Origin: a virus
Virus record (IMG/VR): IMGVR_UViG_3300049259_000177
Coordinates: 1-64,000 of that record
Strand: one strand, 5' to 3'
DNA: 64,000 bases
The notes beneath the pieces are model-generated. The model was not told the origin of the DNA, ran no database searches, and worked only from the letters and a program-made list of their open reading frames with translations. The position numbers and the translations under genes were made by a program. Below, piece by piece: positions 45-44,447 of the stretch; positions within the stretch are counted from its first letter, which is position 1, and every line of letters begins with the position of its first letter.

Positions 45-123
45 GTGAGGCTCCTGTCTTGGGCGGCGGGTCGCTCTCCCACCGATGCAAGCATCGTACA
101 CCCGCTTAGCGTCCTTGAGTCAA
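45..123 (-). promoter_or_regulatory. box-A promoter cassette 1 with leader hairpin B
   Basis: TTGACT-N19-TACGAT with CGCTAAGCGGGT in the spacer; hairpin ggtggg-AGAGCGA-cccgcc at 65-83; RBS 51-59. Confidence 0.85.
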
Positions 124-169
124 CCTCCCCGAAGATTCCGGCGCCAGTGCGGGTAGCCGATGCACGTCG

Positions 170-547
170 TCAGGAATCGACGAGAACGACCGGCCCGGCG
201 ACCTCGATCCGGGCGGTGATCGCAGGGAAGCGCTCGCGGGCGGCAGCGAGCGCAGCGTCGAAGTCGAGGTCCGCGTCGAAGATGAAGTTGGCGTTGGAGT
301 TGCCACGCTTGTCCTGGCTGTAGTCGTGCATCGCAAGCGCCGTCCAGCCGTCGCGGTGGTGCAGCAGGGCAGCCGACTGCGCGGTTGTGGACTTCGGGGG
401 CAACTGTCCGTCGATGCGCTCGAACGGCCCCGCCCGGTTGTAGCCGAAGGTGCCCGAGTCGTCCCGGTAGTCGGGCTGCTTGCCGTTGGGCAGCCACAGG
501 AAGTGGCCGAGGTGGGCGTCCCAGCACCCGAAGAACACGGCGATCAT
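170..547 (-). CDS. hypothetical protein
   Basis: MIAVFFGCWD start overlaps upstream stop (ATGA); protein-like composition. Confidence 0.75.
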   Translation of the reverse strand: MIAVFFGCWDAHLGHFLWLPNGKQPDYRDDSGTFGYNRAGPFERIDGQLPPKSTTAQSAALLHHRDGWTALAMHDYSQDKRGNSNANFIFDADLDFDAALAAARERFPAITARIEVAGPVVLVDS

Positions 548-1281
548 GTTGCGCCCCCCGGGCGCGGGTGATCGACTACCCACGCGACGCGCGCCATCTC
601 GGCTCGGACGTGCGGCTCCGTGCACGCCTCCGGGCACTTGTCGCCGCCGTACTCGCCCTGACAACGGCAGCCGCACCCGTGGCACGAGCCGTGGTCGTCG
701 GCCCGGCAGCGGAAGCAGCCGATGCAGCCGTAGAGCCCCGGCAGGCCCTCGTCCATCGCGACCAGCGCCGTCGTGTAGTCGTAGTCGGCGACGACATGCT
801 CGCCTTCCCAGCGCCACTGCGGCGGCTGGATCTGCGGCTTGCCGTCGGCGTCGCGGTGGGTATCGTGCTCGACCTCGTTCCGCGCCCGGATGCGGCTCTC
901 CTCCCGGCCGACGCGGTCGGCGAGCGCGGCGAGATCGGCGTCGGCGTCGCGGTCTTCGTCGACCGTCTCCCACAGCCTGCCGGTCTGGATCTTGATGAGC
1001 ACGTCGAGGAACGCCGCGAGCAGGTGCACCGGGCAGTAATCCCATGTCTCGGTCGGCTCGGGGCCACCCTGCACGTGTAGGCGCCACGGCGCGGAGGCCC
1101 GACAGTGCTCGGCGGTTTCGCACGTCGTCGGCTCGACGATGGCCTCGACCATGACGGTGATGTCGTCGAAATGGTCCGAGATCAGGTGCACGCGCGGATC
1201 GTCGGGGTCGTTGAGGTCTGATGCCGACGGGCACGCCGCCGCATGCTGTTCGTCGAGCGACGTGCCCGTCGGCGGGGTCAC
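544..1281 (-). CDS. hypothetical Cys-rich protein
   Basis: GTGA overlap with upstream stop; CxxC clusters near C-terminus. Confidence 0.7.
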   Translation of the reverse strand: MTPPTGTSLDEQHAAACPSASDLNDPDDPRVHLISDHFDDITVMVEAIVEPTTCETAEHCRASAPWRLHVQGGPEPTETWDYCPVHLLAAFLDVLIKIQTGRLWETVDEDRDADADLAALADRVGREESRIRARNEVEHDTHRDADGKPQIQPPQWRWEGEHVVADYDYTTALVAMDEGLPGLYGCIGCFRCRADDHGSCHGCGCRCQGEYGGDKCPEACTEPHVRAEMARVAWVVDHPRPGGAT

Positions 1282-1637
1282 GGCTGCTTCGCGGACGTCG
1301 GCGGGTGCACCTTGCCGACCTCGGTGTAGCCGAGCGGTTGCACGTTGTTGAACGCTGGGCCCGGCTCGGAGTAGATGAGCATCTGCTGGCCTTGGCCGGT
1401 CGTCCATTCGAGGTACTTGCCGGTGTTCGCGTCCTGGGCGTAGTAACGCTGGCAGTCACCGCCGGAGTAGAACGCCGCATCGACCGACGGGTCCTGGATG
1501 AGCAGGTTGCCATCACTGTCGTCGCGCACGTGCTGTGTAGGCGTGAGCGAGACGCAGTACGACACGGGCAGGCCGCGCGTCACGTAGTAGCCGACCGGAT
1601 CCCCATTGACGTTGCGCAGGTAGCTCTTGCGGCTCAT
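1278..1637 (-). CDS. hypothetical protein
   Basis: ORF track; translationally coupled. Confidence 0.7.
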   Translation of the reverse strand: MSRKSYLRNVNGDPVGYYVTRGLPVSYCVSLTPTQHVRDDSDGNLLIQDPSVDAAFYSGGDCQRYYAQDANTGKYLEWTTGQGQQMLIYSEPGPAFNNVQPLGYTEVGKVHPPTSAKQP

Positions 1638-1680
1638 CGGATGCCGTCCTCTCGTACCTTGCTCTCGGCATTCTCGACCA

Positions 1681-1893
1681 TCACATCTCCCGGTGACGCT
1701 GGCCGCGAAGGTACTGCGCGATGACCTCGCCAGTGCTCTCGTTGACGACGCGCTGAACCTGCCGAGAGGTGTGCGACATCGCCATGCCTCTACGTCGGGC
1801 GGCGTTCTTGCTCAGCCCACGCGGAGCCAAGTCGTCGTTGCGGAAACCGCCCCACGTCGGGTCGTAGCGCTCGACGCGAAACGTGTCAGCCAC
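1681..1893 (-). CDS. hypothetical protein
   Basis: ORF track; fits gene tiling. Confidence 0.6.
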   Translation of the reverse strand: MADTFRVERYDPTWGGFRNDDLAPRGLSKNAARRRGMAMSHTSRQVQRVVNESTGEVIAQYLRGQRHREM

Positions 1894-2218
1894 GGCCGGG
1901 GCTCAACTCGCGGATACGAGCGACCCCGTGCGTGCCGCCCGGCCCGAGCCGGGCATGGTTGGCGCGCAACTTCGCCGTGCACGGGGTACACGCACGTAGG
2001 GTGATCCACTCGTGGGTACCGGCCTGATAGATGACTACCTCGTAGACCTGCTGCCGTTCGCAGCCGACAAAGATCCGAGAGTGGCAGTCGCCCTCGCGGC
2101 CCTCATCACGAACTGGGCGCGGGCTCTCCGGCGTAGTGTGCGGCGGCAGTTGGTAGTCGTGGTCGAACAAGCCCGGGCCGCACGAGCCGGTGCCTTGCTG
2201 TTCGAGAACGTCTCTCAT
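1886..2218 (-). CDS. hypothetical Cys/His protein
   Basis: MRDVLEQQG start with ATGA overlap. Confidence 0.6.
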   Translation of the reverse strand: MRDVLEQQGTGSCGPGLFDHDYQLPPHTTPESPRPVRDEGREGDCHSRIFVGCERQQVYEVVIYQAGTHEWITLRACTPCTAKLRANHARLGPGGTHGVARIRELSPGRG

Positions 2219-2388
2219 CGCCCCACGACCATGCGTGCGGACTCTGGGTGCGTCTCGTACGGGGGCCACGGCAGCCGCGCCACCGCGTCGAGGCGGAGCG
2301 ACGGTGACATCACCTCGCCGTAGACCTCCACCTCCATCCGGGCGGACCGGAGCAGGCAGCGCACCCAGTCCTGGGTCGTCCGCCTCAT
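2215..2388 (-). CDS. small hypothetical protein (57 aa, MRRTTQDW)
   Basis: read by eye; ATGA overlaps at both ends. Confidence 0.55.
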   Translation of the reverse strand: MRRTTQDWVRCLLRSARMEVEVYGEVMSPSLRLDAVARLPWPPYETHPESARMVVGR

Positions 2389-2894
2389 GACTGCTCGGTC
2401 TCAGCGGGCGGTGGCTGTCCGGTGCGCTCCTGTTTGGTGACGAGGCGCCGAACCGCGCGCCCGAGGATCTCGTCGTCGACGTTGAGCGGCTCGCCGTCAC
2501 TGCGGGCTTTGGTTCGGGCTTCGGCTTCACGCAGATGGTCGTAATCGTTCATGACGAACGGCCCGTCGGCGTAGCCGAGCGCGGCGAGCAGTGGTCGCAA
2601 GGCCCGCCACCCACCGACCGGCACGTGCTGCATCCGACAGAAGTCGTGGACGCCGAACATCCGATCGAGTGGAAGCACGCAGTGCCCGAGGTTCGGGAAG
2701 ATCAGCCACCGGCGCCCCCGGTGCTCGGCGATGACAGTCACGTAGCGGGTGCCGTCCCCGGGTGCGTAGACGACTTCGCGGTTGCCCTCGCGCAGTCCGT
2801 ACGCGGCGAGTACCGGGTCGGCGACCTCATGCGCCCAGTCGGTCAGCCACGCACGTTCGGCAAGAGAGCCTGGCGGGAACGGCGTCGGAGTCAT
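2385..2894 (-). CDS. hypothetical protein
   Basis: coupled ORF. Confidence 0.75.
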   Translation of the reverse strand: MTPTPFPPGSLAERAWLTDWAHEVADPVLAAYGLREGNREVVYAPGDGTRYVTVIAEHRGRRWLIFPNLGHCVLPLDRMFGVHDFCRMQHVPVGGWRALRPLLAALGYADGPFVMNDYDHLREAEARTKARSDGEPLNVDDEILGRAVRRLVTKQERTGQPPPAETEQS

Positions 2895-3456: not shown

Positions 3457-3480
3457 GATGGCTCCGAAGCGTAGGGCCGG

Positions 3481-6219: not shown

Positions 6220-6617
6220 CGCCCCATCGCCTCCGTCACGGTCTTCGCCGTCCAGAAACAGTCGCGTTCGACGACCCACTGCAATGTTCCGGTGCCGACG
6301 AGGCCCTGGGTGTTACCGGTCGGCGTGTACGAGCCGGACGGCCGGACCTCCTCCAACTCGGGCAGGAAGATCGAGCCCCACTCGCCGTCCGGGCACATCG
6401 GCGAGCGGACGATACCGAACGCCATGCCGGTCTCCCAGTCGGCTTCGGTGATCCACCAGTCGAAGCCGCCGACGAAGTAGTGCACGTGCACCGCCTGGCC
6501 GAATGGATCGTCGCTGTCGGCGGTCGAGTGCAGCGCTGGCACCTTCGTGCGGACGTCTTTCGGCGGGTAGAAGTTGTGGCCGCGCGTGCGGCGCTGGGTC
6601 TCGGCTGGCAGCGTCAT
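6216..6617 (-). CDS. DUF2958-like protein
   Basis: YF...DWWITE......AFG.V.....EWGSI.L.ELE...VERD.FW pattern. Confidence 0.75.
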   Translation of the reverse strand: MTLPAETQRRTRGHNFYPPKDVRTKVPALHSTADSDDPFGQAVHVHYFVGGFDWWITEADWETGMAFGIVRSPMCPDGEWGSIFLPELEEVRPSGSYTPTGNTQGLVGTGTLQWVVERDCFWTAKTVTEAMGR

Positions 6618-6850
6618 GACGCGCGCTCCACCTTGGCGCGTAGCGTGCTGCCGTCGGTGCCGTGCCACACGCGGGTGTAGACGTCGCCTTCGCGATGTGG
6701 CTGGGCGCCGTGGAAGATGATGCCAGCGGTGCGGGCGGCTTCGCGGACGACGGCTTCGCTCGCTCGGATACCGGCGTTGAACACGCGCCGGGTCTCCTCG
6801 TGGACGGGCATGGGCTCATCATCGGCGGTGACGGTGACAAGAATGCTCAT
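6614..6850 (-). CDS. hypothetical protein, first gene of box-A operon 2
   Basis: ATG 6850 after ACAGGAG. Confidence 0.75.
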   Translation of the reverse strand: MSILVTVTADDEPMPVHEETRRVFNAGIRASEAVVREAARTAGIIFHGAQPHREGDVYTRVWHGTDGSTLRAKVERAS

Positions 6851-6926
6851 GGTCAGTGCTCCTGTCTGCGCGGGTCGCTCTCCCGCGTCCGGCTCATCGT
6901 ACACCCGCTTAGCATGGTCCCGTCAA
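6851..6926 (-). promoter_or_regulatory. box-A promoter cassette 2 with hairpin B
   Basis: TTGACG-N19-TACGAT, GCTAAGCGGGT; hairpin cgcggg-AGAGCGA-cccgcg at 6869-6887. Confidence 0.85.
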
Positions 6927-8643: not shown

Positions 8644-8915
8644 TGCGCTACCTCGACAAGCACTGGTGTCTCACAGGCGCCATCGGTGCCGACCTTGACG
8701 GTGAAGGCGCGCAGCGCTGCCCACCCGAGCGGCTCGTGGCGGGTCAGTCGCTTGTGCATGCGAAGCGCGCAGTTCGCGGCGGTCGCCTGACTGCGATGCG
8801 TATGTCCGCAGATCTCGCCGGGGAGCGCAACGACGGTCGTCGGGGTCACGGCGGCGGCAAAGTAGGCGCGACCCATGCCGGTGACGGTCGGCTTCTCGAT
8901 CATGACGACGGCCAC
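8640..8915 (-). CDS. hypothetical protein (CGHxHRS..A..C motif)
   Basis: coupled ORF. Confidence 0.65.
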   Translation of the reverse strand: MAVVMIEKPTVTGMGRAYFAAAVTPTTVVALPGEICGHTHRSQATAANCALRMHKRLTRHEPLGWAALRAFTVKVGTDGACETPVLVEVAQ

Positions 8916-9710: not shown

Positions 9711-9933
9711 TCGACGGTCCCACATTGAACTCGAACGAGAACGGCGCAGCCATGTCGCCAGGGAGTGGCTTCATGCGTGATCCGGGCGGCGCGCCGACGT
9801 CGCCCGTGTGGCTGTGGCCGACTGCGCGTGCGCCCTGCCGGTCCCGGCACTCGTCGCAGTAGCCGTCTTCCTGTGTGGCTCGGTTCGAGCAGGCGATGTG
9901 GCAGCGGCACAGCAGCCGCTCGTCGACGATCAC
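9703..9933 (-). CDS. small Cys-rich protein
   Basis: C-x3-C...C-x2-C. Confidence 0.55.
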   Translation of the reverse strand: MIVDERLLCRCHIACSNRATQEDGYCDECRDRQGARAVGHSHTGDVGAPPGSRMKPLPGDMAAPFSFEFNVGPSNG

Positions 9934-10510: not shown

Positions 10511-10894
10511 TCATGACTCCCTCCCGTGGGCCTGCTCGTGCAGTCGGTCCAGGTCCCACGGTCCAGTCTGGCGACCGTCGACGGTGACCCAGGTGAAGCC
10601 GTACTTGCGGACGACCTCGGCGTGAATGTCATGGTGGGCTATCAGGTGCCAGGCGAGGCGGGGTGTGAACCGGTCGAACGCCTGCCGCGTGGCGCGGGCG
10701 TTGTTGGTGATGCGCTGGTCTGAGCCGAGCGCACGGAGGACCGACTTGCGCAGCCGCTCGATCTCGCGCTCGGCGAACTTCACGCGCACGTCGGCGCCGG
10801 GCATGTCGGGGATCTCGCGGGCGGTCTGCTCGCGGAACCATGCCGTGTCCTTGCCCCGTGTCGGACCGGAGCGGCGGGCGCGGGCGGTTCTCAC
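10511..10894 (-). CDS. hypothetical protein
   Basis: coupled ORF. Confidence 0.7.
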   Translation of the reverse strand: MRTARARRSGPTRGKDTAWFREQTAREIPDMPGADVRVKFAEREIERLRKSVLRALGSDQRITNNARATRQAFDRFTPRLAWHLIAHHDIHAEVVRKYGFTWVTVDGRQTGPWDLDRLHEQAHGRES

Positions 10895-11175
10895 TCCGCA
10901 CCGCCGATCAGCAGGGCCCGGATAGCGGCCTCGCCGCGCGCGGACAGGCCGTCATCGGCAGTTCTGCCCGTACCGACGAGGTCTCCGATACGGGAGCCGT
11001 CCTGGTTGACGACGATCGACGCGAACACGGCGCGCGGGGCATTCGCAGACAGTCTCCCCGCTTGGCCTTCGACGATGACCTCGTATCGGCCGCGCCAGCC
11101 GGACTTCCAGGCGCGGTAGCCAGCGGCGCGCAGGTCGGCGATCAGTTGTCCGACGGGCGTGAGTGCGGTGGTCAT
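10891..11175 (-). CDS. hypothetical protein, first gene of box-A operon 3
   Basis: ATG 11175 after AGGAGG. Confidence 0.75.
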   Translation of the reverse strand: MTTALTPVGQLIADLRAAGYRAWKSGWRGRYEVIVEGQAGRLSANAPRAVFASIVVNQDGSRIGDLVGTGRTADDGLSARGEAAIRALLIGGAE

Positions 11176-11246
11176 CCTGTCCTCCTGTGGTGGCCGGTCG
11201 CTCTCCGGTCCCACGTAGCGTATACCCGCTTAGCGTCGGCGTGCAA
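11176..11246 (-). promoter_or_regulatory. box-A promoter cassette 3 with hairpin B
   Basis: TTGCAC-N18-TACGCT; hairpin ccgg-AGAGCGA-ccgg at 11194-11208. Confidence 0.85.
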
Positions 11247-13332: not shown

Positions 13333-13334
13333 CG

Positions 13335-15683: not shown

Positions 15684-16842
15684 CGGAGCGCTCCCCGACA
15701 CCGAGCCCGTGCGTGTCGACGAGTTCGACCTTGACCTCGCCGTGCTCGATCTCAGGATGCTCGGCGTTGAGGTGTTCGTGCAGGGCGGCGCCGAGTTCCC
15801 GGCTGGCCGGAGCGGCGATGCGCCGCTCCGGGTGGTGGCCGACCTCGACAACGAACGACTCGCCGCAGGTCGGGCAGGAAGTGACGACCGCGAGATCGAG
15901 CGGACCGTCGGCGAACTCGACCGGCTCGACCGGTGGTGGCGGCGGGACGCGCTGCCAGCCCGCTTCGCGCATCTCTTGCTCGTCGAGGGTCTCGATCGTG
16001 ATGCCCAGGTTGTCGGGCAGCGCGAGCATCAGCGCCGCACCGGCTTCGGCGCGCAGCAGGTTGCCGAGACCGTCGAACTCCGAGGCGTCGACGGCGGCGG
16101 CTTCGCTGATGTGCAGCACGACGACCCGGCCCTGCATGTCGAGGGAACCGAGGACCTGGCGCGCGGTCTCGGTCATCAGCGCCCGCCAGTTGTCCGGCAG
16201 AGCCTCCCACAACGTCTGCGTCTCTTCCGGCACGCGCAGGTCGAAATCGGGCGCGAGGCGCTGGTAGGTGTCGTGGAACAGCCGCGCGACGGTAACGGCG
16301 GCGCGGTCCACCCGGGTCGGCTCGACGATGCGCAGCCCGTCGTCGAGGATGGCGTCGACCGCGAGGCGCGCGACGTGGGCGGCATACGTCGCGCACTTGC
16401 CGACGTGCCCGCACTCATCCGGAGCCGGGTGCCCGCCGACGACAGGCCCGAGCGCGGTCGCGACGGTCTTCCAGGCGATCCAGCGCGGCTGCTGCGACTG
16501 GCGCGGGTCGGCGGGCACCCATTCGCGCTCCGGCTCGCCTTCGGTTTGCTCGCGGATGATCGCGGGCTCACGGAACGCGGCGGTCGCATGGTCGGTGTCG
16601 ATGAGGTACTCGACGGCGACGATCTGTTCGCGGACCTGCGGCGGCCAGGTCTGCGGTGGCTCACCTTCGGCGATGGCGAAGCCGTGCGAGTTCGCCCACG
16701 TGCGCGGGTCGACCCACTTGCCGTCGGCGGCCTTGATCGCGAGCGCGTTGAGCGCCCGCACGCCAGGGGTGACGTCGAAGGTGGTGCCGTCGAGCGGGCC
16801 GCCTTCGCACGTGACCGTGACAGTGTCCGTCGTCTCCGTCAT
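15676..16842 (-). CDS. multidomain hypothetical protein (probably leaderless)
   Basis: GGPLDG motif, C-terminal CPTC...H..H; ATG 7 nt after a -10 element. Confidence 0.75.
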   Translation of the reverse strand: MTETTDTVTVTCEGGPLDGTTFDVTPGVRALNALAIKAADGKWVDPRTWANSHGFAIAEGEPPQTWPPQVREQIVAVEYLIDTDHATAAFREPAIIREQTEGEPEREWVPADPRQSQQPRWIAWKTVATALGPVVGGHPAPDECGHVGKCATYAAHVARLAVDAILDDGLRIVEPTRVDRAAVTVARLFHDTYQRLAPDFDLRVPEETQTLWEALPDNWRALMTETARQVLGSLDMQGRVVVLHISEAAAVDASEFDGLGNLLRAEAGAALMLALPDNLGITIETLDEQEMREAGWQRVPPPPPVEPVEFADGPLDLAVVTSCPTCGESFVVEVGHHPERRIAAPASRELGAALHEHLNAEHPEIEHGEVKVELVDTHGLGVGERSDG

Positions 16843-17660: not shown

Positions 17661-18044
17661 ATGTGCACAGCAACAACCACCGTCAGCCCATACACCGGGC
17701 ACGGCCATCTCGTCTCCGGGCTCAGCGACAAAGGCTGGGACAAGCCGGACGCCGTCGCCCGGTGCGGCGGGGTCGGGATCTGCCCCTCGTGCTCGACGGA
17801 TGCCGCGCGCATCAAGATGGCGACCCGGGAGAGCCCCGAGCCGGGCCAGCCGCATTCGATCGACTCGGACCCGGAGTTCTACTCCGGGCTCACCATGTGG
17901 GGGACAGCGGTCTCTGCGCAGGTCAGCGACACGACGGTCGTCCTGCATCCGACGAACAGCCTCCTCGACGTCGAGATGCCACACACCGACGCCCGACGCT
18001 TGCGCGACCTGCTCAACGTCGCGACCGCACGCGGGTACCTGTAG
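17661..18044 (+). CDS. hypothetical protein
   Basis: GHGH...ARCGG..IC..C motif; leaderless start. Confidence 0.7.
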   Translation: MCTATTTVSPYTGHGHLVSGLSDKGWDKPDAVARCGGVGICPSCSTDAARIKMATRESPEPGQPHSIDSDPEFYSGLTMWGTAVSAQVSDTTVVLHPTNSLLDVEMPHTDARRLRDLLNVATARGYL

Positions 18045-19441: not shown

Positions 19442-19830
19442 GGTGGTACTGGAAGTACCGCCGCTGGTTGCACCGCGATTGGAACTGGGGGAAGCGCCGC
19501 CCGCTCACGGGCTCCCATGACGTCGGCCGCTGGTCGGCGAGCGTCGACGTGACCGGATTGAACGTCCCGCAGGTCAAGGTCTACGGCGAAGGCGAGGACT
19601 ACGCCTACGTCATGATCGGCTACGGCTCGCCGGGCAGCGATCCGGTGCTGCGCCTCGAAGTCGACCTTGAAGGCACCGCGCTCGGGCGGGCGATCGCATG
19701 GACGTGGTGGCGGGCCCGGCAGGCCCGGCACTGGGACTGGCGTCGTGAAGCGCCGCAGACTACTGCGGCGGCGGCAGAATCGACGGGTGAAGACGAGCCT
19801 GACGAACGAGGAACTCCGGTCGCTGAGTAA
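19438..19830 (+). CDS. hypothetical protein
   Basis: GTGA overlap. Confidence 0.65.
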   Translation: MRWYWKYRRWLHRDWNWGKRRPLTGSHDVGRWSASVDVTGLNVPQVKVYGEGEDYAYVMIGYGSPGSDPVLRLEVDLEGTALGRAIAWTWWRARQARHWDWRREAPQTTAAAAESTGEDEPDERGTPVAE

Positions 19831-20116
19831 GCGACTGGAAGACACGTACGGCGACGACTCGATCCCGACGATCGAGACGCACTACCTGCGCGGCGAGCAC
19901 GACGAGCCCGGCGCCCCGTTCCTGTGCGCGTACTCACGACCGTTGACGATGGGCCAGCATGACTGCCGGTACCGACGCCGGGACCCGGTCGTGATGTGGC
20001 TGCACGTGCACTTCACCGGCCACGGCTTGTCATTCGTCGGCGGCACGACCCCGGAGCGGGTGCTCGCCATGCTCGATGCCGGGACGTTGGAGCGCACGCC
20101 GGTGGGGGCGCGCTGA
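19787..20116 (+). CDS. hypothetical protein
   Basis: fits gene tiling. Confidence 0.6.
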   Translation: MKTSLTNEELRSLSKRLEDTYGDDSIPTIETHYLRGEHDEPGAPFLCAYSRPLTMGQHDCRYRRRDPVVMWLHVHFTGHGLSFVGGTTPERVLAMLDAGTLERTPVGAR

Positions 20117-23191: not shown

Positions 23192-23448
23192 GCGCTCCTC
23201 CGGGTGTAGTCCGCCGAGCCGTGCCGCTCGGACGCTAAGCGGGTAATCTCTGCGGGCCGTGGCCGGGTCCACCGATGACTGACCACGAAGCCGACGACGA
23301 CCGCGCCGACCCCGGCGAGCAGGGCCGTCGCGCCGGTGACGACGGCCAGCGTCGCCGTCAGGGCACCGGCTCCCGTCAGGGCGACCCCGGCGGCGCGCCG
23401 GGCTGGATGAATGGTCCGTTCGAGGCGGCGGGGCGCCGTGGCGGTCAC
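23188..23448 (-). CDS. two-TM membrane protein
   Basis: hydrophobic core; coupled to upstream gene. Confidence 0.7.
   Translation of the reverse strand: MTATAPRRLERTIHPARRAAGVALTGAGALTATLAVVTGATALLAGVGAVVVGFVVSHRWTRPRPAEITRLASERHGSADYTRRSA
23221..23249 (+). promoter_or_regulatory. intragenic box-A promoter facing antisense into the terminase-small-subunit-like gene
   Basis: GTGCCG-N17-TAATCT with perfect CGCTAAGCGGGT. Confidence 0.55.
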
Positions 23449-24149
23449 GAGGACTCACTATCGCTCTCGACGATCTCTGTGTCCACCGGGGCCGCGTCGC
23501 CTTCGCCTGCCGGTAGCGCGGCCTGCTCGCGCTGCCACGCGAAGGACTCGGCGAGTCGGTCCGCGAGCGACGCCAGCGCCGTCCGGTCCGTCACCTCGAT
23601 CGGGCCGCCACCCGGACCCGACACCTCAAGGTGATGTTGCTGCACCTGACGGCCGAACTGGCTCGGGAACGCCCGCTCGATCCACCACTGCGCCGCCTTC
23701 CAGTCCGGCCCGGCGTACGTCCGCGTCTCGACGAAGCCACCCTCGGCCGTGTGACTTCGCGTATGGGACAGCAACGTCCCGCCACGCGCCACCTTGTCGA
23801 CGATCTCAAGCATCTCGCCCAGCCGCTTCGCCCGCACACGCGAGACGGCGTCCAGTAAGTCCACATAGGGCCACTGTTCGGGCCTGGGTGTGGGGTTGGG
23901 GTTCTCGGGGGTCGCGAGCGCGGAGAGCCGGTCGAGTTCGGTGGCGGCTCGGTTGGCCCAGTTGTAGAACGTGGACCGGGAGATCCCTGCCGCGTCGCAG
24001 GCTGTCTCGACGGAGTACCCGGCGGCGAAGGCTTTGATGAGCCGGTCGCGGACGCCTTTCTCGACGAGGCGTGAGGGCCGCGCCTGGGGTTGGCGTGCCG
24101 AGTGGCCGGACCGCTCGGAGTGACGGCGGGCCTTGGTCGCGCGGGACAC
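23445..24149 (-). CDS. terminase small subunit-like HTH protein
   Basis: AGYSVETACDAAGISRSTFYNW, DWKAAQWWIER.FP..FGR, EVSGPGGGPIEV. Confidence 0.7.
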   Translation of the reverse strand: MSRATKARRHSERSGHSARQPQARPSRLVEKGVRDRLIKAFAAGYSVETACDAAGISRSTFYNWANRAATELDRLSALATPENPNPTPRPEQWPYVDLLDAVSRVRAKRLGEMLEIVDKVARGGTLLSHTRSHTAEGGFVETRTYAGPDWKAAQWWIERAFPSQFGRQVQQHHLEVSGPGGGPIEVTDRTALASLADRLAESFAWQREQAALPAGEGDAAPVDTEIVESDSESS

Positions 24150-25279: not shown

Positions 25280-25480
25280 CTAGTGGCGAGTCGAGGCGCT
25301 GGCAACCTTTCTTGACGTAGTCTCGGCCGGAACGGCGGTGGCATCCGGGTCCGGTTCGTGGCCGGTCATCAGGTGGCCGCGCTCCAGGACACAGGTACGC
25401 CAGACCAGCCCGTCGACGTCCTCGTCGACGCGGGGGGCCTCACGCCAGCGGAAGCCGCAGCGTTTGCCGTGCTCGTGCAT
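25280..25480 (-). CDS. small C-C-H-H protein
   Basis: ACAGGAG RBS; downstream of box-A promoter 4. Confidence 0.65.
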   Translation of the reverse strand: MHEHGKRCGFRWREAPRVDEDVDGLVWRTCVLERGHLMTGHEPDPDATAVPAETTSRKVASASTRH

Positions 25481-25525
25481 GATGTGCTCCTGTTCGCCTG
25501 GGCACGCTCGTCCCAGGTCAAGCGG

Positions 25526-25555
25526 AGCGTACACCCGCTTAGCGTGTAGTGGCAA
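25526..25555 (-). promoter_or_regulatory. box-A promoter 4 (no hairpin B)
   Basis: TTGCCA-N18-TACGCT; the box supplies the TAA stop of the upstream gene. Confidence 0.8.
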
Positions 25556-25801: not shown

Positions 25802-25855
25802 AGGATGGTGCCCATCCGCTTAGCAGTCAATGCGTTACGGATTACGGATTACGGG
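25802..25855 (-). promoter_or_regulatory. variant box-A promoter with upstream 7-bp tandem repeat x3
   Basis: TTGACT-N17-CATCCT containing GCTAAGCGGAT; TTACGG(A/G) x3 at 25835-25855. Confidence 0.6.
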
Positions 25856-30090: not shown

Positions 30091-30449
30091 AACGCGACGC
30101 CGACGTCACCGGCTTCGACGGCGCGTTCGAGATCCCCTCGCATCTTGCGGCGCTGCCGCGCGGACGCGGCCCCCCACACGCCTTCCGGGGTGCGGGTCGT
30201 CTGCGAGTAGGCGAGACACTCGTCGGCGACCGAGCAGCGCTGGCACAGCCGTTTGGCGGCAGTGGCCTTGCGGTGCTTCGGCGGGAAGAACGCGTCTGGG
30301 TCGATGCCATCGACACACAGGGCGTCGTCCATCCAGTCGGTGTTTCCGGCGTCGGCTGGGAACAGTAGCGACCAGTCGAAATCGTCCGGCAACTGTAGTG
30401 GCGTGCTCGCCACCTCCGGTACGAACTCGGTCTCGGCTTCGATCGTCAC
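30087..30449 (-). CDS. whiB: WhiB-family transcription factor
   Basis: W..DALC....PDAFFP....AKRLC.RC.V..ECL.Y......GVWG....QRR. Confidence 0.92.
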   Translation of the reverse strand: MTIEAETEFVPEVASTPLQLPDDFDWSLLFPADAGNTDWMDDALCVDGIDPDAFFPPKHRKATAAKRLCQRCSVADECLAYSQTTRTPEGVWGAASARQRRKMRGDLERAVEAGDVGVAL

Positions 30450-31840
30450 GCGGTCACCGCCTGCTGGTCGTCGGGGGTTGCTAGCGGCACCACGGCGTCA
30501 GGGGCGCTGGCGAGCACTTCCTCGGGGGTCGGGGGCTTGGGCTTGCCGGGCCGCTTCGCGGCGCGGACCGGCTTGACCGAGGTCCACTTGTCTCGGCGCT
30601 TCGGCGGGTCCGGCAAGGCGGCAAGTCGTGGCCGCGCGTCGTCGGGCTCGTCGAACAAGCCCTCCAATTGGGCAACGCGTTTCTTCGGGTCCGGCATCCA
30701 CCGTCCGCTCTCGCCGACCTCGAACGCGCCGTAGGTGTCCGGCGGCACGCCATCGAGCAGCGCGAGCCCCTCTTTCTCCTGCCTCTCGGCGGCGGACTTG
30801 CGCTGCTTGGCGTCGTACGTCGCGGCGGCGAAGTATTCGACCTCGACCGGGTCGACGTCTTCACCGAGCACCGTCAACGACTCCGGTGAGCGGCCGAGCG
30901 CCTTCGCTTTCGGAATGTTCCAGCAGTGACTACGAGCAAAACAGCCCCGGCAGATGCCGTCGGTGCTCGGCCCGGAGCGGGTGCGCGGCAGGTGACCACC
31001 GGCGTCGAGTGTCGCGGCATAGCCGAGCAGCCGATCGAGGGCCTGCTGTGCACGCTCCTCGTCGTAGGGCCGGGCGAAGACCTCGTCGTGGCCGTTCTCG
31101 CGCTTGATGTAGACGAGCCGCACGGTGTGCACCGGGAAGCCCATGCGGATCATCGCCAGCGCGTAGATGTAGACCTGCTCCCACGTCTCCTCGTCGGGCC
31201 CCTCGTCGCCGAGATGGTCCCACTTCCAGTTGCCTGCCGTCTTCCCGTCATCGAGGGTCATCGTGACCGGGTCGTAGCGGTCGAGCCGGGTGTTCTTCGA
31301 GTCCAGTCCCGGCACTTGCACGACGTACTCGTGCAGACGCCACGGGTAGAGCACCTCGGAGACGTTCACCCAGTCGCGGTGGACCATCGCGCCGATGCGC
31401 GCGGGTCGCTTGTCTTCCGGGTCCGGCTTGAAACCCTCCGGTGGTCGCTCGCGGTACTCGATCGCCTTGGGGCAGTTCGCTGTGTCCGACGGCCCGATGC
31501 CGAGAGTGCCTTCGGCGCGCGGGGTGCGCTTGGCGCGCTCGCGCCGCTCGAACTCCCGCAGTTCGTCGCCGAAGGTCATCTCCGATGCGTTGAGGGCTTT
31601 CTCGACGAGCACGTCGACGACGTCGCGCCGGTAGCGAGCACAGCCGGTGCGGGGGCACTTGCCGGATCGACTGGTACCGGTGTGCTCCCAGCGTGGCGCA
31701 CTACAGACACACGGTTCGGGCGCCGGGCCCATCGGAGTGTCCGAGTCGGTGAGCCGGGCGAGCACGCGCTCGCGCGCCTGCTCGATCGGTAGTCGGCGTA
31801 GCCTTGGTGGCAACACCGGTTGCTCGACAATGGTGGTCAC
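30446..31840 (-). CDS. Cas4/RecE-like PD-(D/E)xK exonuclease
   Basis: PS....CPK..Y, G..VH, LD...DGKT, Q..IY, C..C.....C; N-terminal zinc motif. Confidence 0.8.
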   Translation of the reverse strand: MTTIVEQPVLPPRLRRLPIEQARERVLARLTDSDTPMGPAPEPCVCSAPRWEHTGTSRSGKCPRTGCARYRRDVVDVLVEKALNASEMTFGDELREFERRERAKRTPRAEGTLGIGPSDTANCPKAIEYRERPPEGFKPDPEDKRPARIGAMVHRDWVNVSEVLYPWRLHEYVVQVPGLDSKNTRLDRYDPVTMTLDDGKTAGNWKWDHLGDEGPDEETWEQVYIYALAMIRMGFPVHTVRLVYIKRENGHDEVFARPYDEERAQQALDRLLGYAATLDAGGHLPRTRSGPSTDGICRGCFARSHCWNIPKAKALGRSPESLTVLGEDVDPVEVEYFAAATYDAKQRKSAAERQEKEGLALLDGVPPDTYGAFEVGESGRWMPDPKKRVAQLEGLFDEPDDARPRLAALPDPPKRRDKWTSVKPVRAAKRPGKPKPPTPEEVLASAPDAVVPLATPDDQQAVTA

Positions 31841-31857: not shown

Positions 31858-32049
31858 GCCGGGGTTCGCTCTCCCCGGCGGGGGTGGCGGCTGAGGTCGA
31901 GACGCGGGACGCTACGCCTCGGCCTCACTAACGTCGCGTCGAGCGGCGCTAAGTGGGTGTGCTTTCACAGTAGGGGAACCTAGCGCACCCCGCCGACAGA
32001 AACCGACAACCCGTTACGGGTTGTCGGTTCGGCGTGTCGGGTGTACGGT
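31858..32049. promoter_or_regulatory. divergent control region
   Basis: hairpin B 31858-31879, class-C promoter 31909-31942, box-A variant 31947-31959, 29-bp palindrome 32001-32029, TTGTCG-N17-TACGGT 32021-32049. Confidence 0.75.
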
Positions 32050-32103: not shown

Positions 32104-32706
32104 ATGCACACCGTCAAGGCACGCCCGATCACCGTCGCCGACGTCGAGGTCGGCCGCAAGATCCTCCACGCACACGGCGTCGGCTACGTCGACGCGGAGG
32201 TTGTCAACGTCCGTACCAAAGAGCGCGTCCGCCGTGAGGGTGGCGACCGGGGCCCTGTCGTCGAGACCGGAACCGAGACCCACTTCGGCATCCGCAGCGC
32301 CACCGGCTACGAGACGGGCGGTGCGTTCTATCCGGCGTTCCTGCCGCCGCAGTCCCGTGGCTCGGACCCTGGTCTGTCCTTCCTTGTTCCCGACGAGGAC
32401 GGCGAGATCGAGGCGCCGGTGCTCGACTACATCGGCTGCGTCACCCGAGGCATCGGACTCAACGTGTTCATCCGTGACGAGACCGACCCGGAGGTCGCCG
32501 CTAAGCGGGTGCGCGAAGCGCTCGGCGATGCCGGACTGGAAGTCATCGGCGACGCCGTGACCTGCGTACCCGTCACCGAGCAACGTGTCGTTATCTACGA
32601 CATCGGCAACGACAGCCCTCGGGGCGTCTGCTTCGAGCACGAGTCGTCGACGATCTCCAAGCGCAGTGCGTACCGCACCGACTACCTGCCCGTCGGGGCT
32701 CAGTGA
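32104..32706 (+). CDS. hypothetical protein
   Basis: AGAGGAG RBS; contains a box-A copy at 32499-32511. Confidence 0.75.
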   Translation: MHTVKARPITVADVEVGRKILHAHGVGYVDAEVVNVRTKERVRREGGDRGPVVETGTETHFGIRSATGYETGGAFYPAFLPPQSRGSDPGLSFLVPDEDGEIEAPVLDYIGCVTRGIGLNVFIRDETDPEVAAKRVREALGDAGLEVIGDAVTCVPVTEQRVVIYDIGNDSPRGVCFEHESSTISKRSAYRTDYLPVGAQ

Positions 32707-33086
32707 CCGAGGGCGAACGCGAGGGCTGGCCGAAAGGCTGGCCCTCGCCGGTGCTGGACCCGACGATGCACCCCCGAGTCATGGAGATCTGCGACCCGGA
32801 CACCTCGGAGGTGCTCGGCGGCGCGGTTTTCGGTGAGGACGACGAGTACGTCATCGTGAACCCGGCGACGCTTGCGACGCTGCGTGACTTCCCCACCTGC
32901 CATGTCGCCAGCGGGCCGCCACAGATGCCGCCCTGGCGGGTCGAAACGCCGGTCTACGCGGCGCTGGTCGACACGCTCGGCATCGAGCCCGTCGGCGTAG
33001 CCGCACGGCAGTGGACCGACGTGATCGCGAACGCGGTCTGGCACGACACCGGCGTGTCCTGGGATCGGCTTGCACTCTCACGCTAA
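32703..33086 (+). CDS. hypothetical protein
   Basis: GTGA overlap; stop lies inside box A. Confidence 0.7.
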   Translation: MTEGEREGWPKGWPSPVLDPTMHPRVMEICDPDTSEVLGGAVFGEDDEYVIVNPATLATLRDFPTCHVASGPPQMPPWRVETPVYAALVDTLGIEPVGVAARQWTDVIANAVWHDTGVSWDRLALSR

Positions 33087-33134
33087 GCGGGTGTACGATG
33101 AGCCGACGCGGGAGAGCGACCCGCCGGACAGGAG
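33070..33134 (+). promoter_or_regulatory. box-A promoter cassette with hairpin B
   Basis: TTGCAC-N18-TACGAT; gcggg-AGAGCGA-cccgc at 33108-33124; ACAGGAG. Confidence 0.88.
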
Positions 33135-33142
33135 ACAGGGCA

Positions 33143-34111
33143 ATGATCGAGAACCTCGCCACCGCAACACCTTCCGAGATCGACACCGTGCTTGCCGACC
33201 TCTACGACAAGGCGTGGGCGCTGGGCATGGAGTGCTCGCGCCGTGTCGACGCCGTGTTCTACGAGGCCGGTGCAAAGCGGGTCAGCCGCAGCGCCCGCCA
33301 CCGCGACTGGAACATGACGCTCGACGAGGCGACGGCCGTCGTCGAGGCCAGGGCCAGCGAGGGCAACGAGAAGTCCTGGGAGCGCGCAGGCGCACAGCAC
33401 GTGCTCGACGCTCTCGCCGACGCCCGCAAGGCCTCCGCTGCCAACCGTGACGAGCAGGCCCCCCTGCACGCCGAGTTCACCCGGCGTGGCGGCTGGACCC
33501 GCGCGTTCCTCGTCGTCACTCAGGGCACCGGCCATGTTCATTCGTCGATGCACTGCTCGACCTGCTTCGACACGACCCAGTTCGCCTGGCTCCCCGAGTT
33601 GTCCGGCAGCGACGAGACCGCCATCGTGGCCGCCGCCGGTCAGGACGCCTGCACCGTCTGCTACCCGAGTGCGCCGGTCGACACCGCAGGCCCGCGCAGC
33701 ATCTACTCGAAGGGCGAGCGCAAGACGGCCGAGGAGCGCGCGACCTGGCAGGCCGAACTCGCCGAGAAGCGCGCCGTGCGGGAAGCCAAGGCGATCTATG
33801 ACGTGGACGGCTCGACGCTCCGCGACGGCCACGGCTTCGAGATCAAGACCGAGCGCACCGCGCAGACCGTCTATGTCAACGCCGCCGCCGATGCCATCCG
33901 CTACGCAGCCGAGGCCGAGGGGCCGATCGCCTCGTGGGTTACCCGGGGCCACGACGAGTACCGGGCGCACCTGCGCACGCTGGCAGTCGAGTACGCCGCA
34001 CAGGCCGAGCGCGTCCTGGCCGCCCTTGCCGCCAAGCGGGCCACGACGGTCGAGGAGCAGCGCGAGGCGCTGGCCCGCAAGGTTTCCGCCAAGGTCAAGC
34101 AGAACGCCTGA
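33143..34111 (+). CDS. hypothetical protein with H-x-H..C..C / C..C metal motif
   Basis: GWTRAFLV...GHVHSSMHCSTC...CTVCYPSAP. Confidence 0.85.
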   Translation: MIENLATATPSEIDTVLADLYDKAWALGMECSRRVDAVFYEAGAKRVSRSARHRDWNMTLDEATAVVEARASEGNEKSWERAGAQHVLDALADARKASAANRDEQAPLHAEFTRRGGWTRAFLVVTQGTGHVHSSMHCSTCFDTTQFAWLPELSGSDETAIVAAAGQDACTVCYPSAPVDTAGPRSIYSKGERKTAEERATWQAELAEKRAVREAKAIYDVDGSTLRDGHGFEIKTERTAQTVYVNAAADAIRYAAEAEGPIASWVTRGHDEYRAHLRTLAVEYAAQAERVLAALAAKRATTVEEQREALARKVSAKVKQNA

Positions 34112-38227: not shown

Positions 38228-38235
38228 CGTTGCTC

Positions 38236-39331: not shown

Positions 39332-39399
39332 TTGCGCTCTCACGCTAAGCGGGTGTACGGTCTTGGTTGTGCGGGAGAGCGACCCGCCGGACAGGAGAC
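39332..39399 (+). promoter_or_regulatory. box-A promoter cassette with hairpin B
   Basis: TTGCGC-N18-TACGGT; hairpin 39371-39387; 29 nt identical to the 33108 cassette. Confidence 0.88.
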
Positions 39400-39403
39400 G
39401 ATC

Positions 39404-39757
39404 ATGGCGAAAGGCAACTGGCGCCGCCGGGACTTCGGCTGGCTGCGCGCCGACGGCGAGGCGTTCCTAGAGCGAGGCGCCCCAATGAGCGACACCGGCA
39501 AGCCCGCGTGGCTGGTCTGGATTCGCGCGCTCGACAGCGAGATCGAGATCGGCGAGGGCGGCACCGTGCTTACCCGCGATGGCTGCGACCCGGTCCGCGC
39601 GCTCGGCGAACTGTGCGGCAACGAGCCGTCGCAGGTCCGCCCCGACGGCCCGTGGTTCATTCACCGTGGCGACGAGGGCTGGCTGGCCGACGCGAAGGCC
39701 GCCGCCGAATACCACCTCGCGCGTCGTGACGAGAAGGCCGACGCGGTGACGCGCTAG
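39404..39757 (+). CDS. hypothetical protein
   Basis: ATG after ACAGGAG. Confidence 0.8.
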   Translation: MAKGNWRRRDFGWLRADGEAFLERGAPMSDTGKPAWLVWIRALDSEIEIGEGGTVLTRDGCDPVRALGELCGNEPSQVRPDGPWFIHRGDEGWLADAKAAAEYHLARRDEKADAVTR

Positions 39758-39809
39758 ACCAGCGCCGACGTGACCTACGGTGGCCGGGAGATCTCGACGA
39801 GAGGACGCC

Positions 39810-41092: not shown

Positions 41093-41170
41093 CCAGCCCC
41101 TCGGGGGACGCTACGCGCGGCACAGTAGTCGCGCCGCGACGCCTTCCGCCATGCACCGAGGAGCGCACCC

Positions 41171-41893: not shown

Positions 41894-42036
41894 GGGCCGC
41901 GCCGCCCGCCCTGCACAGCCAGTCCGATCAGCCAGATCACGAGCATGACCAGCGCGACCCACCACAGGACGTGCACGGCAAAGCCGACGCCGCCGAGGAT
42001 CAGCGCGAGCAGTAAGACCAGCAGGAGAGCGCCCAT
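41890..42036 (-). CDS. small actinobacterial hydrophobic membrane protein (48 aa)
   Basis: MGALLLVLLLALILGGVGFAVHVLWWVALVMLVIWLIG; ATG 7 nt after TAACGT. Confidence 0.75.
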   Translation of the reverse strand: MGALLLVLLLALILGGVGFAVHVLWWVALVMLVIWLIGLAVQGGRRGP

Positions 42037-42046
42037 ACTCGGCACG

Positions 42047-43633
42047 TTACCCGGCTGGGCCCTCGCCAACGCCTGCTTCGAGGTCCGCCACGGTGTGGAT
42101 GGGGTCGTCGCGGTAGAACCCGCAGCCGGGAGCCTGGCACTCCGGGTTCGACTTACGCCGCTTGTCCTGCATGAACTCGTGTGGGCCGTCGACCTCCTGC
42201 TCGGCCTCCGGGGTGTGTGCCACCTCGGGCGCCTGGGCGTCAGGAGCGGGCTCCGCCGTTGTCGGCTCGGCGGCGGCCACGGCTTCGCTGTCAGCGGCAC
42301 CGTCGACAATCTCCGCGTCCTCGACGTCGCCGGGCTCGCCCGCGTCCTCGCCGCCGGTGCCGGACAGTACGGCGTCCAGGTCGGCGATCACCGGCGCGGA
42401 CTCGTCGCTCGCCCACACGGCGTAACGTTCCGCCTCGGCCCGGCGGGATTCGTCGCCGCGCAGTTTCTCGACGATCATCGAACGAAAGCCGTGCACCATC
42501 GGCGCAAGCGCGTTCAAGGGGAAGTCCTCGATGTTCTGTCGCCGGGCACGCACGAAGCGGCTGGCGAGTCCCGCCGGGGTGTTGCCCATCTGCTCGGCCT
42601 GCCACCCAAGTTCTACGAGCCAGGCGGCCCGGGCGGCTTTCTCGTCGAGTACCTCGCCCGTCGTCCCGTCGACGGGCTCCTGCTGCTCAGCGGTGGCGTC
42701 GGCGGGCTTCCCTGGCTCCGTCGGCGGTTCCGGGGCCGCAGCGGGTTCCTGAGGGGCACCGGGGGCCGTCTGCGCCGCCTTGGCACGAGCGAACGCTTCC
42801 TTGCGCTGCGCGGCCCGCTCTCGCTCCTCCCGGGCCTTCTCCTCCATGTCGGCGCGGTGCATCTCCTCAAAGGTGACAGTCCCAGCGAACTCGTCGGGGA
42901 ACACCTTGCGCAGCACCAGTGCTTCACTGCATTTCGCAAGCATGTGGTGGAAGCCCTTCTGCCACATCTCGCCGAGTTCCATGATCTGCGTGCCGTCCTC
43001 GCCGACGACCGGCACCTTGCGACGACTACCCTGTGCGCCCTGCCACTCGAACTTCGGGTAGAGCGGCGCGTACATGCCCCAGTGGGCGACGGCGTCGGAG
43101 ACGACCATCTGGCCGAAAGCATCGTAGTGACGGATGACGGCCTTGGCTGCGCCCGGGTAGCCCCGCGATTCGGGCCACTCGTCGTACCACACGCGCTGCA
43201 TGACGCCGGTGGCCTCGTTGTAGCGCCAGCAAGCGGGGTCGTCGTCGTCGCCGGTCCACAGCCAGGTGGCGGAGCCGACGAGGAGTCTGGTGCGGGCAGC
43301 GATCGTGCGATACCCATCAATCCCGACCTGAATGGTGAACTTTGCCTTGTCGCCCTCGCCACGCTGAATGAGGTACGCCTGCCTGCGCCACGGATCTACG
43401 TTCATCCGCTGGCAGACGTGCAGGAAGACTCTGAGGTGCGGGCGGGCGCGCTCATCGTCCGGGTTGGCGTTGGTGATTGCCGACAGCGCGGCTTTCTGCT
43501 CCGGGGTGAGCCGGGTCTGGTTCGGTTCGAGGGTCAGCGAGCCAAGGGTGACTACACCTTCCGGCTCAGGAATCTCGTCGGTGGTCGGGATCTGCTGTTC
43601 CTGCGGTGGCGCCTCGGCCGTAGTGCTGGTCAC
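42047..43633 (-). CDS. bet: Bet/RecT-family single-strand annealing recombinase with long C-terminal extension
   Basis: DPWRRQAYLI.R...TIQVGIDGYRTIA.R...MW.K...MLAKCSEALVLRKVFP. Confidence 0.9.
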   Translation of the reverse strand: MTSTTAEAPPQEQQIPTTDEIPEPEGVVTLGSLTLEPNQTRLTPEQKAALSAITNANPDDERARPHLRVFLHVCQRMNVDPWRRQAYLIQRGEGDKAKFTIQVGIDGYRTIAARTRLLVGSATWLWTGDDDDPACWRYNEATGVMQRVWYDEWPESRGYPGAAKAVIRHYDAFGQMVVSDAVAHWGMYAPLYPKFEWQGAQGSRRKVPVVGEDGTQIMELGEMWQKGFHHMLAKCSEALVLRKVFPDEFAGTVTFEEMHRADMEEKAREERERAAQRKEAFARAKAAQTAPGAPQEPAAAPEPPTEPGKPADATAEQQEPVDGTTGEVLDEKAARAAWLVELGWQAEQMGNTPAGLASRFVRARRQNIEDFPLNALAPMVHGFRSMIVEKLRGDESRRAEAERYAVWASDESAPVIADLDAVLSGTGGEDAGEPGDVEDAEIVDGAADSEAVAAAEPTTAEPAPDAQAPEVAHTPEAEQEVDGPHEFMQDKRRKSNPECQAPGCGFYRDDPIHTVADLEAGVGEGPAG

Positions 43634-44013
43634 GTGCTCCTCCTGGTTGCCGGGTCGCTCTCCGGCGATCGGTCTGTCCTCGATGATGGGGTACGGGTAC
43701 GACAGTTTGGCGCGACATAGTCATTCGCAAGTTGCAGCACGACGTTGCACGCGATGGCCCACAGGTCGGGCCGGGCCTGCCGCAACCGGAGGGCGCGCGC
43801 GACCTCGCGGCGCTTGTCCTCGGGAATGCGCTGCCAGCACATCGCGCACACGACGTTGCCGTAGCGCACGGACAGGCCGCAGCCATGTGTCGGACAGTGG
43901 TGACGGCCACGGGTCTCGACGAACGGCTGGGTATAGACGCCGGGCGCCCGCCACTCGCGTGGCTGGGTCTCCGGCGGCAGTTCTTCGAGGTAGGCGATCT
44001 CGGCGGCGGTCAT
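43630..44013 (-). CDS. zinc-finger hypothetical protein
   Basis: CP..GC...C..CW..IP. Confidence 0.65.
   Translation of the reverse strand: MTAAEIAYLEELPPETQPREWRAPGVYTQPFVETRGRHHCPTHGCGLSVRYGNVVCAMCWQRIPEDKRREVARALRLRQARPDLWAIACNVVLQLANDYVAPNCRTRTPSSRTDRSPESDPATRRST
43636..43716 (-). promoter_or_regulatory. class-C promoter plus hairpin-B leader of bet
   Basis: GTCGCG-N22-CATCAT; gccgg-AGAGCGAC-ccggc at 43649-43666; AGGAGG. Confidence 0.75.
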
Positions 44014-44057
44014 GTCGGGGCGCCGGACCCGTAACGGCCTATGCGGAAGGGCGCCGC

Positions 44058-44369
44058 TCACCGCGAGCAGGCGCCGGTGTGCCCGGGCGGCTTGCGCGGC
44101 CCCGGTTCACCGGCGGGGTCGCCGATGCCGCAGAAGGGGCACAGCGCACGCTCGCGCTCGGAAGAGGCGAGCATCTCGACGACGATGCGGCGGGTCAGGT
44201 CGTGCGGCAACCGAACCCCGGCAGCCTCAGCGGCGCCGGACCACTCCTCCTCGGTGAAGTGCGCAGCCTTGTCGGCGGTGATGTCCATGCCGGACAGCCG
44301 CAGGTACAGACTGAACGCCTTGTTGCGGCGCGCGACCGTCTCGCGCTCCTCGGCGACGGTGGTGATCAC
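44058..44369 (-). CDS. hypothetical protein
   Basis: AGGAGG RBS; first gene after box-A promoter. Confidence 0.75.
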   Translation of the reverse strand: MITTVAEERETVARRNKAFSLYLRLSGMDITADKAAHFTEEEWSGAAEAAGVRLPHDLTRRIVVEMLASSERERALCPFCGIGDPAGEPGPRKPPGHTGACSR

Positions 44370-44377
44370 GGATCTCT

Positions 44378-44447
44378 CCTCCTGGCGGGCCGGTTCGCTC
44401 GCCAGCCCTCACCACGGAGTGTACCCGCTTAGCGTGACAGTCCGCAA
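44378..44447 (-). promoter_or_regulatory. box-A promoter cassette with hairpin-B variant
   Basis: TTGCGG-N18-TACACT; gggctgg-CGAGCGAA-ccggccc at 44387-44408. Confidence 0.8.

Follow-up and report, generated by a model that had tools for sequence, protein, structure and literature searches.

Short sequence elements that recur just ahead of genes have been described in two groups of phages. Studies have shown that Cluster K mycobacteriophages carry the SAS, a fixed 13-mer (GGGATAGGAGCCC) that includes the ribosome-binding site, is conserved across subclusters and occurs in 11-19 copies per genome, and the ESAS, in which a variable spacer is flanked by conserved inverted repeats of 17 bp; both are without known function or reader (Pope et al. 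2011, PMC3203893). In the T4-type phages RB49 and phi1, a repeated unit called PeSL, which combines a sigma-70-type promoter, a G/C stem-loop and a Shine-Dalgarno (SD) sequence, is found before small orphan genes. PeSLs act as promoters and terminators, their stem-loops lie mostly upstream of the promoter boxes or overlap them, no conserved loop has been reported, and recombination via near-identical copies has been proposed (Arbiol et al. 2010, PMC2839356). In this study, we analysed the first 64 kb (called the window here) of the 114,594-bp IMG/VR virus record IMGVR_UViG_3300049259_000177, in which a small hairpin with a fixed GAGCGA loop stands just before the SD sequence of a set of genes. 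The element is real, belongs to a family found in several phage lineages and is a signal in mRNA leaders, and it is apparently undescribed. The Cluster K SAS/ESAS and the T4-type PeSL are its closest analogues, and both lack the combination of a constant loop and a co-varying stem.

Like SAS and ESAS, the hairpin is a short repeat in a single orientation just before the starts of non-structural genes of unrelated families. The difference is that here the arms vary with compensation and the loop, which corresponds to the spacer, is conserved. The SAS 13-mer itself is absent (1 match with 2 mismatches vs 1.3 expected). As in PeSL, promoter, stem-loop and SD sequence are joined in one intergenic unit in about 14 of the 17 copies of the record; unlike in PeSL, the hairpin is always downstream of the -10 box (by 8-10 nt), has an invariant loop, lacks a U tract and is also found without a promoter. 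Rfam 15 gave nothing in the window at gathering scores, and the best weak match in a leader (E = 0.09) was to an unrelated family.

The earlier note on this DNA had listed eight such hairpins. All eight are present where it placed them, with the same stems and in the sense of the downstream gene, and the AGGAG that it saw within about 10 nt does follow the 3' arm in each of them: after a 4-10 nt spacer comes (AC)AGGAG, then 5-9 nt, then ATG or GTG. The list was incomplete, since there is a ninth copy in the window (25497-25517, minus strand), a further hairpin readable on the plus strand (44498-44511) and eight copies beyond the window (Table 1). The eight listed copies have a G/C stem of 4-7 bp and a loop of the form (A/C)GAGCGA(A/C). 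In the whole 114.6-kb record there are 17 copies, one per gene, which carry 15 distinct stems under the same loop. On its own, the hexamer GAGCGA is not overrepresented in the window (64 matches vs 83 expected). The full arrangement, defined as a GAGCGA loop on a stem of at least 4 bp followed by an SD sequence and a start codon, occurs 8 times in the window and not once in its reversed sequence, while 200 shuffles that preserve dinucleotides gave 0.19 ± 0.44, with a maximum of 2.

The stems of the 17 copies were then compared by an arm-swap test. The real arms form 96 bp and the permuted arms 67.3 ± 5.3 bp, and 0 of 20,000 permutations reached 96; because swapping the arms lowers pairing to this extent, the 5' and 3' arms co-vary. 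A covariance model (R1) was built from the 17 copies, and the cross-lineage alignment consisted of 85 copies from four lineages that R1 matched with E < 1e-4. In this alignment, which was fitted to the model and is made up of paralogues, 93.5% of cells pair (67.3% in shuffles), two-sided changes are seen in 107 cells (27.8 in shuffles), and the covariation score is 0.575, compared with 0.148 in shuffles (0/500 reached 0.575) and 0.04-0.10 with slid partners. All 6 modelled stem pairs show changes on both sides, and GAGCG(A) stays fixed. This covariation is strong enough to exclude chance. The co-varying stems under a fixed loop described from the window alone hold up. The claim that the stems also keep pairing through G-U holds in part: G-U pairs are present, but in this genome they are no commoner than A-C mismatches (6 vs 6), the ratio being 33:5, 10:1 and 5:4 in the relatives G001, G004 and G005, respectively. 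Isolated leaders fold as predicted with high probability, with the loop about 0.8 unpaired and the SD sequence outside the hairpin, and we infer that they fold in this way in vivo. The hairpin is oriented with the gene, it is linked to the SD sequence and its arms co-vary, all of which argues for an RNA element rather than a protein site on duplex DNA.

The relatives were found by a pattern scan of IMG/VR, which returned phage contigs with many copies; counts curated from model and script scans were 42 in G001, 27 in G004 and 23 in G005. G001 (126.9 kb, classed as a provirus) has the promoter box TTAAATACCGGTACATT and the typical stem GUUGGG/CCCGAC. G002-G004 (78-89 kb), which are near-identical to each other and are represented here by G004 (IMGVR_UViG_3300015371_000008), have the box GCTAAATGACTGTAC and the stem GUGUUGG/CCAACAC. 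In G005 (87 kb, GC 0.72), the box ends in GCTACACTT, the loop is UGAGCGA and the SD sequence is GGAGACCCC. These three lineages have few proteins in common with the phage of the window or with one another, and GAGCG(A) is fixed in all four despite the differing promoter boxes, stems and proteomes, within a loop of 6-9 nt on stems of 4-13 bp. In every case the hairpin has the same sense as the gene that follows, there are 2-10 nt (occasionally up to 18 nt) between the end of its 3' arm and the SD sequence after it, and the loop precedes the start codon by 20-30 nt. The signal is borne by 13-23% of the roughly called genes of these actinobacterial phages, which are only distantly related. The genes that follow are mostly non-virion and of unrelated families, including RecT, exonuclease, helicase, the neighbours of the clamp and many small open reading frames (ORFs). 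Orthologues keep the hairpin with different stems across lineages. For example, the RecT gene and the exonuclease gene have G001 counterparts that also carry a leader hairpin with another stem, and the 322-aa protein (phrog_15500) has a G004 homologue that also carries one. Among the matches listed for bacterial genome contigs, a few are leader-like (a contig of a Mycobacteriales metagenome-assembled genome and Actinoallomurus soli), each as a single copy.

The spacing of the hairpin to the -10 box is also nearly constant. Most copies here (about 14/17) are preceded by a box-A promoter, which has a TTGAC/TTGCxC -35 box, a spacer with GCTAAGCGGGT and the -10 box TACGAT (as at 86-125, minus strand), by a variant of it or by a -10-type promoter sequence; the copies without a box-A-type promoter are those at 31858, 43649 and 65418, so that 6 of the 8 reported sites follow box A. 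The hairpin had been called an independent RNA element, and we agree with this, as it is found with box A, without box A and, in the relatives, behind other promoter boxes, tRNAs and stop codons. In this genome, the stem base lies 8-10 nt past the end of the -10 box, and the distance from the last base of the -10 box to GAGCGA is 15-16 nt in 9 of 12 promoter-linked copies (range 13-17 nt). Each of the four lineages keeps to nearly one distance (15-16, 14, 12 and about 17 nt). Transcription from sigma-A promoters begins about 7 nt past the -10 box; if this holds here, the stem would start at about +2 to +4. Box A is also seen without a GAGCGA hairpin, at 25814-25824 (minus strand) and at 23234-23244, 31948-31958 and 32500-32510 (plus strand). 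The first of these still precedes an SD sequence and ATG, with a different leader, and the other three may lie inside genes or drive other RNAs.

Other copies have a different sequence at the same place. In G004, a tRNA-Glu gene ends 3 nt upstream of one hairpin, and six copies of a conserved mini tRNA-like element each stop 2-4 nt short of a GAGCGA leader hairpin. These elements (about 50 nt) have an acceptor-like stem, a small hairpin and a GGTTC T-arm followed by GGGGCAC; ARAGORN and Rfam did not call them, and they may punctuate messages through tRNA-processing enzymes. The tRNA genes themselves number 36 in G004 (L067:7272-19957) and 33 in G001 (L060:932-6667), in dense arrays, and 0 both in G005 and in the phage of the window. 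In the other promoterless copies, the upstream tract is 46% C and 20% G, and in the promoter-linked copies it is 18% C. Mycobacterial RNase E has been found to cleave single-stranded RNA 5' of C within C-rich regions (PMC10641625). These three upstream devices, namely the -10 box, the tRNA or tRNA-like element and the C-rich tract, would each place the RNA 5' end at the foot of the hairpin, and the spacing to -10 boxes, tRNA ends and tRNA-like ends fits a hairpin that starts within about 4 nt of the presumed 5' end. Stem-loops that stabilise a message from its 5' terminus are known from the E. coli ompA leader and the B. subtilis aprE and ermC leaders, each of which belongs to one gene; they are not known to have a loop sequence in common. 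The hairpin would resemble them in standing a few nucleotides from the RNA 5' end, and it likewise has a strong ribosome-binding site after it.

In this paper, we propose, with a probability of about 0.5, that the hairpin is a 5'-terminal leader module whose stem shields the 5' end and whose loop is read by a conserved, probably host, factor. Many phage messages, for the most part from non-virion genes, would begin with the hairpin, and its stem would close off their 5' end and thereby keep RNases that depend on a 5' end (RNase J, RNase E) from starting. The invariant loop, 20-30 nt before the start codon, would be held beside the initiating 30S subunit as a docking site, and the docked factor would set the stability or the translation of the whole gene set together.

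Several points weigh against this proposal. The 5' ends that it needs are presumed from -10 boxes and tRNA ends. The longest stems in G001 and G004 begin just 3-4 nt past the -10 box, so their outer pairs may precede the transcript start, and at site 31858 the nearest promoter-like sequence puts the hairpin about 20 nt into the RNA. Protection of a 5' end alone needs no fixed loop. In this genome, G-U and A-C are equally frequent. The copies have spread by duplication as paralogues, which means that they cannot be counted as separate events. No reader was found, there is no phage RNA-binding protein common to the lineages, and UCGCUC, the complement of the loop, is absent from Micromonospora and Streptomyces 16S rRNA. 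Nor is this complement overrepresented in the first 90 nt of the downstream message, and direct pairing of the loop with 16S rRNA or with the downstream message is thus unsupported by the complement searches.

With regard to the reader, the four lineages all share just one protein besides a fibre repeat, namely a TerS-like helix-turn-helix (HTH) protein, which could bind the related promoter boxes. Its family is also present in 11 other phage contigs that lack the hairpin, and for this reason it was rejected as a shared phage reader. SSB, DnaB, an amidase and a ParB-like nuclease are also widely shared. No phage protein is distributed like the element, which favours a host reader over a phage one, and the fixed loop in four lineages with differing boxes, stems and proteomes suggests that this host reader is a common one. 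We also considered a phage-encoded regulator, such as a RegA-like repressor or a RegB-like endoribonuclease, which would bind the loop beside the SD sequence and shut off or destroy the non-virion messages at the late switch. In favour of such a regulator, hairpins that bind proteins usually keep the loop constant while the stem varies, the copies stand mostly before non-virion genes, and the hairpin is near enough to the SD sequence for a bound protein to block the ribosome. The window also encodes an arginine-rich ORF (19745-20116), a speculative RNA-binding candidate that we take as a lead only; it has no homologue in the related phages, and such stretches are common in ORFs of high GC. As the four lineages have no candidate binder in common, the TerS-like family being met in hairpin-free contigs as well, we regard a phage regulator as rather unlikely.

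The earlier note had suggested a boxB/nut-like antitermination signal or a translational operator. An action on translation or on the stability of the message is compatible with the anatomy, whether as an operator for a repressor or as a positive leader. In phage lambda, boxB has a 5-bp stem and a GNRA-like pentaloop (GAAAA or GAAGA), and boxA (CGCUCUUA-type) lies a few nucleotides 5' of it; the nut site is bound by the arginine-rich N protein and occurs once or twice per genome, where long operons that contain internal terminators begin. The hairpin resembles it as a small promoter-proximal RNA structure with its information in the loop rather than the stem, and a nut/put-like process, in which the nascent hairpin, with or without a factor, modifies the host RNA polymerase for terminator read-through, would have the merit that this polymerase is a reader common to unrelated phages. 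However, the boxA pattern YGCTCTT(W)A was found in 0 of 110 leader contexts, where at most a few transcribed nucleotides precede the hairpin, and the loop is not GNRA-like but is a GAGCG(A) loop of 6-9 nt. No N-like partner was recognised, the ORF at 19745-20116 being arginine-rich at its N-terminus and lacking a family. There is one copy per gene, 17-42 per genome and often only a few hundred nucleotides apart, where one per operon would suffice. The copies also follow tRNAs and stop codons, and they are tied to the SD sequence rather than to terminators: a terminator scan called 1 canonical terminator-like site in 20 kb, although GC-rich DNA makes such a scan uninformative. The nut-like reading is therefore not supported by these comparisons, and we consider antitermination improbable.

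The likeness to PeSL raises another explanation, in which the whole unit is a mobile cassette kept alike as a patch of homology for shuffling small genes and the hairpin is at most an insulator against upstream transcription. The unit does head many small orphan genes, and the T4-type PeSLs are the same combination of promoter, stem-loop and SD sequence (PMC2839356). The cassettes at 39371 (plus strand) and at genome position 77785 (minus strand) are identical over at least 73 nt. These two (39332-39400 in the window and L027:13740-13830) are in opposite orientation and about 38 kb apart, and recombination between them would flip the intervening segment; the cassette at 33070-33140 is a close variant. 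In G001, a copy on the minus strand at about 70415-70455 (L063:10415-10455) has a 13-bp stem and an AGAGCGA loop, then a T run, then the SD sequence, and thus resembles a combination of intrinsic terminator and leader hairpin. However, homology for recombination leaves the compensatory stem changes under a fixed loop unexplained, and the loop is retained where promoter box and stem have both been replaced. Lying downstream of the -10 box, the hairpin as a terminator would halt its own transcript, and there are almost no U tracts. We therefore give the cassette only a slim chance as the explanation of the hairpin.

The hairpin at 44498-44511 bears on a further explanation. It lies in a stretch (44440-44640) that is very stable and poor in ORFs, with -96.7 kcal/mol over 200 nt. 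When this stretch is read on the minus strand, the structured RNA at 44464-44652 would display UCGCUC in the form GGGG-UCGCUC-CCCC and, as a trans-acting phage RNA, could kiss the loops of the leaders. On the plus strand, however, the same hairpin is an ordinary leader-type one behind TTGCAG-N19-TACGTG, although no start codon stands at the usual distance past its AGGAGG. At the syntenic positions, G001 (79438) and G005 (38799) each have a leader on the plus strand that is followed by its own SD sequence and start codon, and the four genomes contain no other conserved sense-strand UCGCUC hairpin. A trans-acting RNA is thus a highly improbable reading of this site.

Table 1. Hairpins and other features of the phage record and of its relative G004. 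Coordinates refer to the window, except for the copies outside it (start of GAGCG, record coordinates) and for L070. Scores are bits of model R1.
Feature	Position	Strand	Stem; loop	Score	Context
Hairpin 1	64-84	-	CGGUGGG/CCCGCCG; AGAGCGA	44.8	box-A promoter 86-125; SD about 52-56; GTG 44; gene runs past contig end
Hairpin 2	6869-6887	-	CGCGGG/CCCGCG; AGAGCGA	51.7	box A 6903-6913; gene 6614-6850, 78 aa, no family
Hairpin 3	11194-11208	-	CCGG/CCGG; AGAGCGA	46.8	box A 11224-11234; gene 10891-11175, 94 aa
Ninth, newly found hairpin	25497-25517	-	CCUGGG/CCCAGG; variant loop ACGAGCGUG	43.7	box A 25533-25543; gene 25280-25480, 66 aa
Hairpin 4	31858-31879	-	GCCGGGG/CCCCGGC; AGAGCGAA		without box A, C-rich tract upstream; gene 30446-31840, 464 aa, exonuclease-like
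Hairpin 5	33108-33124	+	GCGGG/CCCGC; AGAGCGA		box A 33082-33092; gene 33143-34111, 322 aa, phrog_15500
Hairpin 6	39371-39387	+	GCGGG/CCCGC; AGAGCGA	52.4 (top model score)	box A 39344-39354; gene 39404-39757, 117 aa
Hairpin 7	43649-43666	-	GCCGG/CCGGC; AGAGCGAC		without box A; gene 42047-43633, RecT-like, 528 aa
Hairpin 8	44387-44408	-	GGGCUGG/CCGGCCC; CGAGCGAA		box A 44423-44433; gene 44058-44369, 103 aa
Leader-type hairpin	44498-44511	read on +	GGGG/CCCC; GAGCGA		TTGCAG-N19-TACGTG upstream; AGGAGG about 28 nt downstream
Copies outside the window	65418, 74077, 77785, 95286, 96640, 102782, 104688, 110966	-			
Mini tRNA-like copies	L070:8540-8610, 8791-8861, 9754-9824	-			G004
Mini tRNA-like copies	L070:15348-15418, 16399-16469, 17698-17768	-			G004
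TerS-like HTH	23445-24149	-			far from large terminase gene; 72% identity G001 vs G004
Arginine-rich ORF	19745-20116	+			123 aa; N-terminus KRRRLLRRRQNRR; no Pfam family

The record is linear, with a GC content of about 0.68 and a completeness of 88% (CheckV). Its proteins are those of a tailed phage (a 1,686-aa tape measure, tail fibres, major capsid protein and portal), they resemble proteins of actinobacterial phages only distantly, and RecT, exonuclease, a helicase and a sliding clamp are also encoded. The sequencing runs with DNA of this phage are soil metagenomes, all from one study, and no RNA run is among the runs listed for it. When pieces of the window and the promoter-leader units were compared by megablast and blastn with about 50,700 phage records, no relative was found and no cultured phage proved to be near at the DNA level, and a scan of IMG/VR with a box-A 16-mer gave single matches only, which are probably due to chance. 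By capsid protein, Streptomyces phage Gilgamesh (42%) and Gordonia phage GMA6 come closest among cultured phages, and the covariance model had zero matches in either. One further hairpin with a GAGCGA loop, which is 12 bp long and unusually AT-rich, sits on the minus strand inside the 3' end of the major capsid gene (genome 67050-67079, L027:3050-3079), with no start site near.

Beyond the leader module proposed above, we speculated that the GAGCGA hairpin might be a cap-like tag of identity at the 5' end of phage messages, an idea that we hold as doubtful. Such a tag would have three interchangeable installers, namely the promoter at a fixed distance, the tRNA or mini tRNA-like element cut by tRNA-processing enzymes and the C-rich tract of RNase E type, and a host ribosome, RNase or RNA-binding protein would read it, so that phage mRNAs would be spared from decay or preferentially translated. 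If true, this would explain the same loop in distantly related phages with few common proteins.

Post-transcriptional control of genes in phages is known from a handful of model systems. The 40-nt leader, which comprises the hairpin and the SD sequence, is a portable expression part for trial in Streptomyces, Micromonospora and mycobacteria. The tRNA-like punctuation of G004 would be a rare case among bacterial viruses of 5' ends made by tRNA-processing enzymes. Should the loop be read by a host factor, phages of high-GC Gram-positive bacteria would have a hitherto unrecognised means of marking or privileging their own messages.

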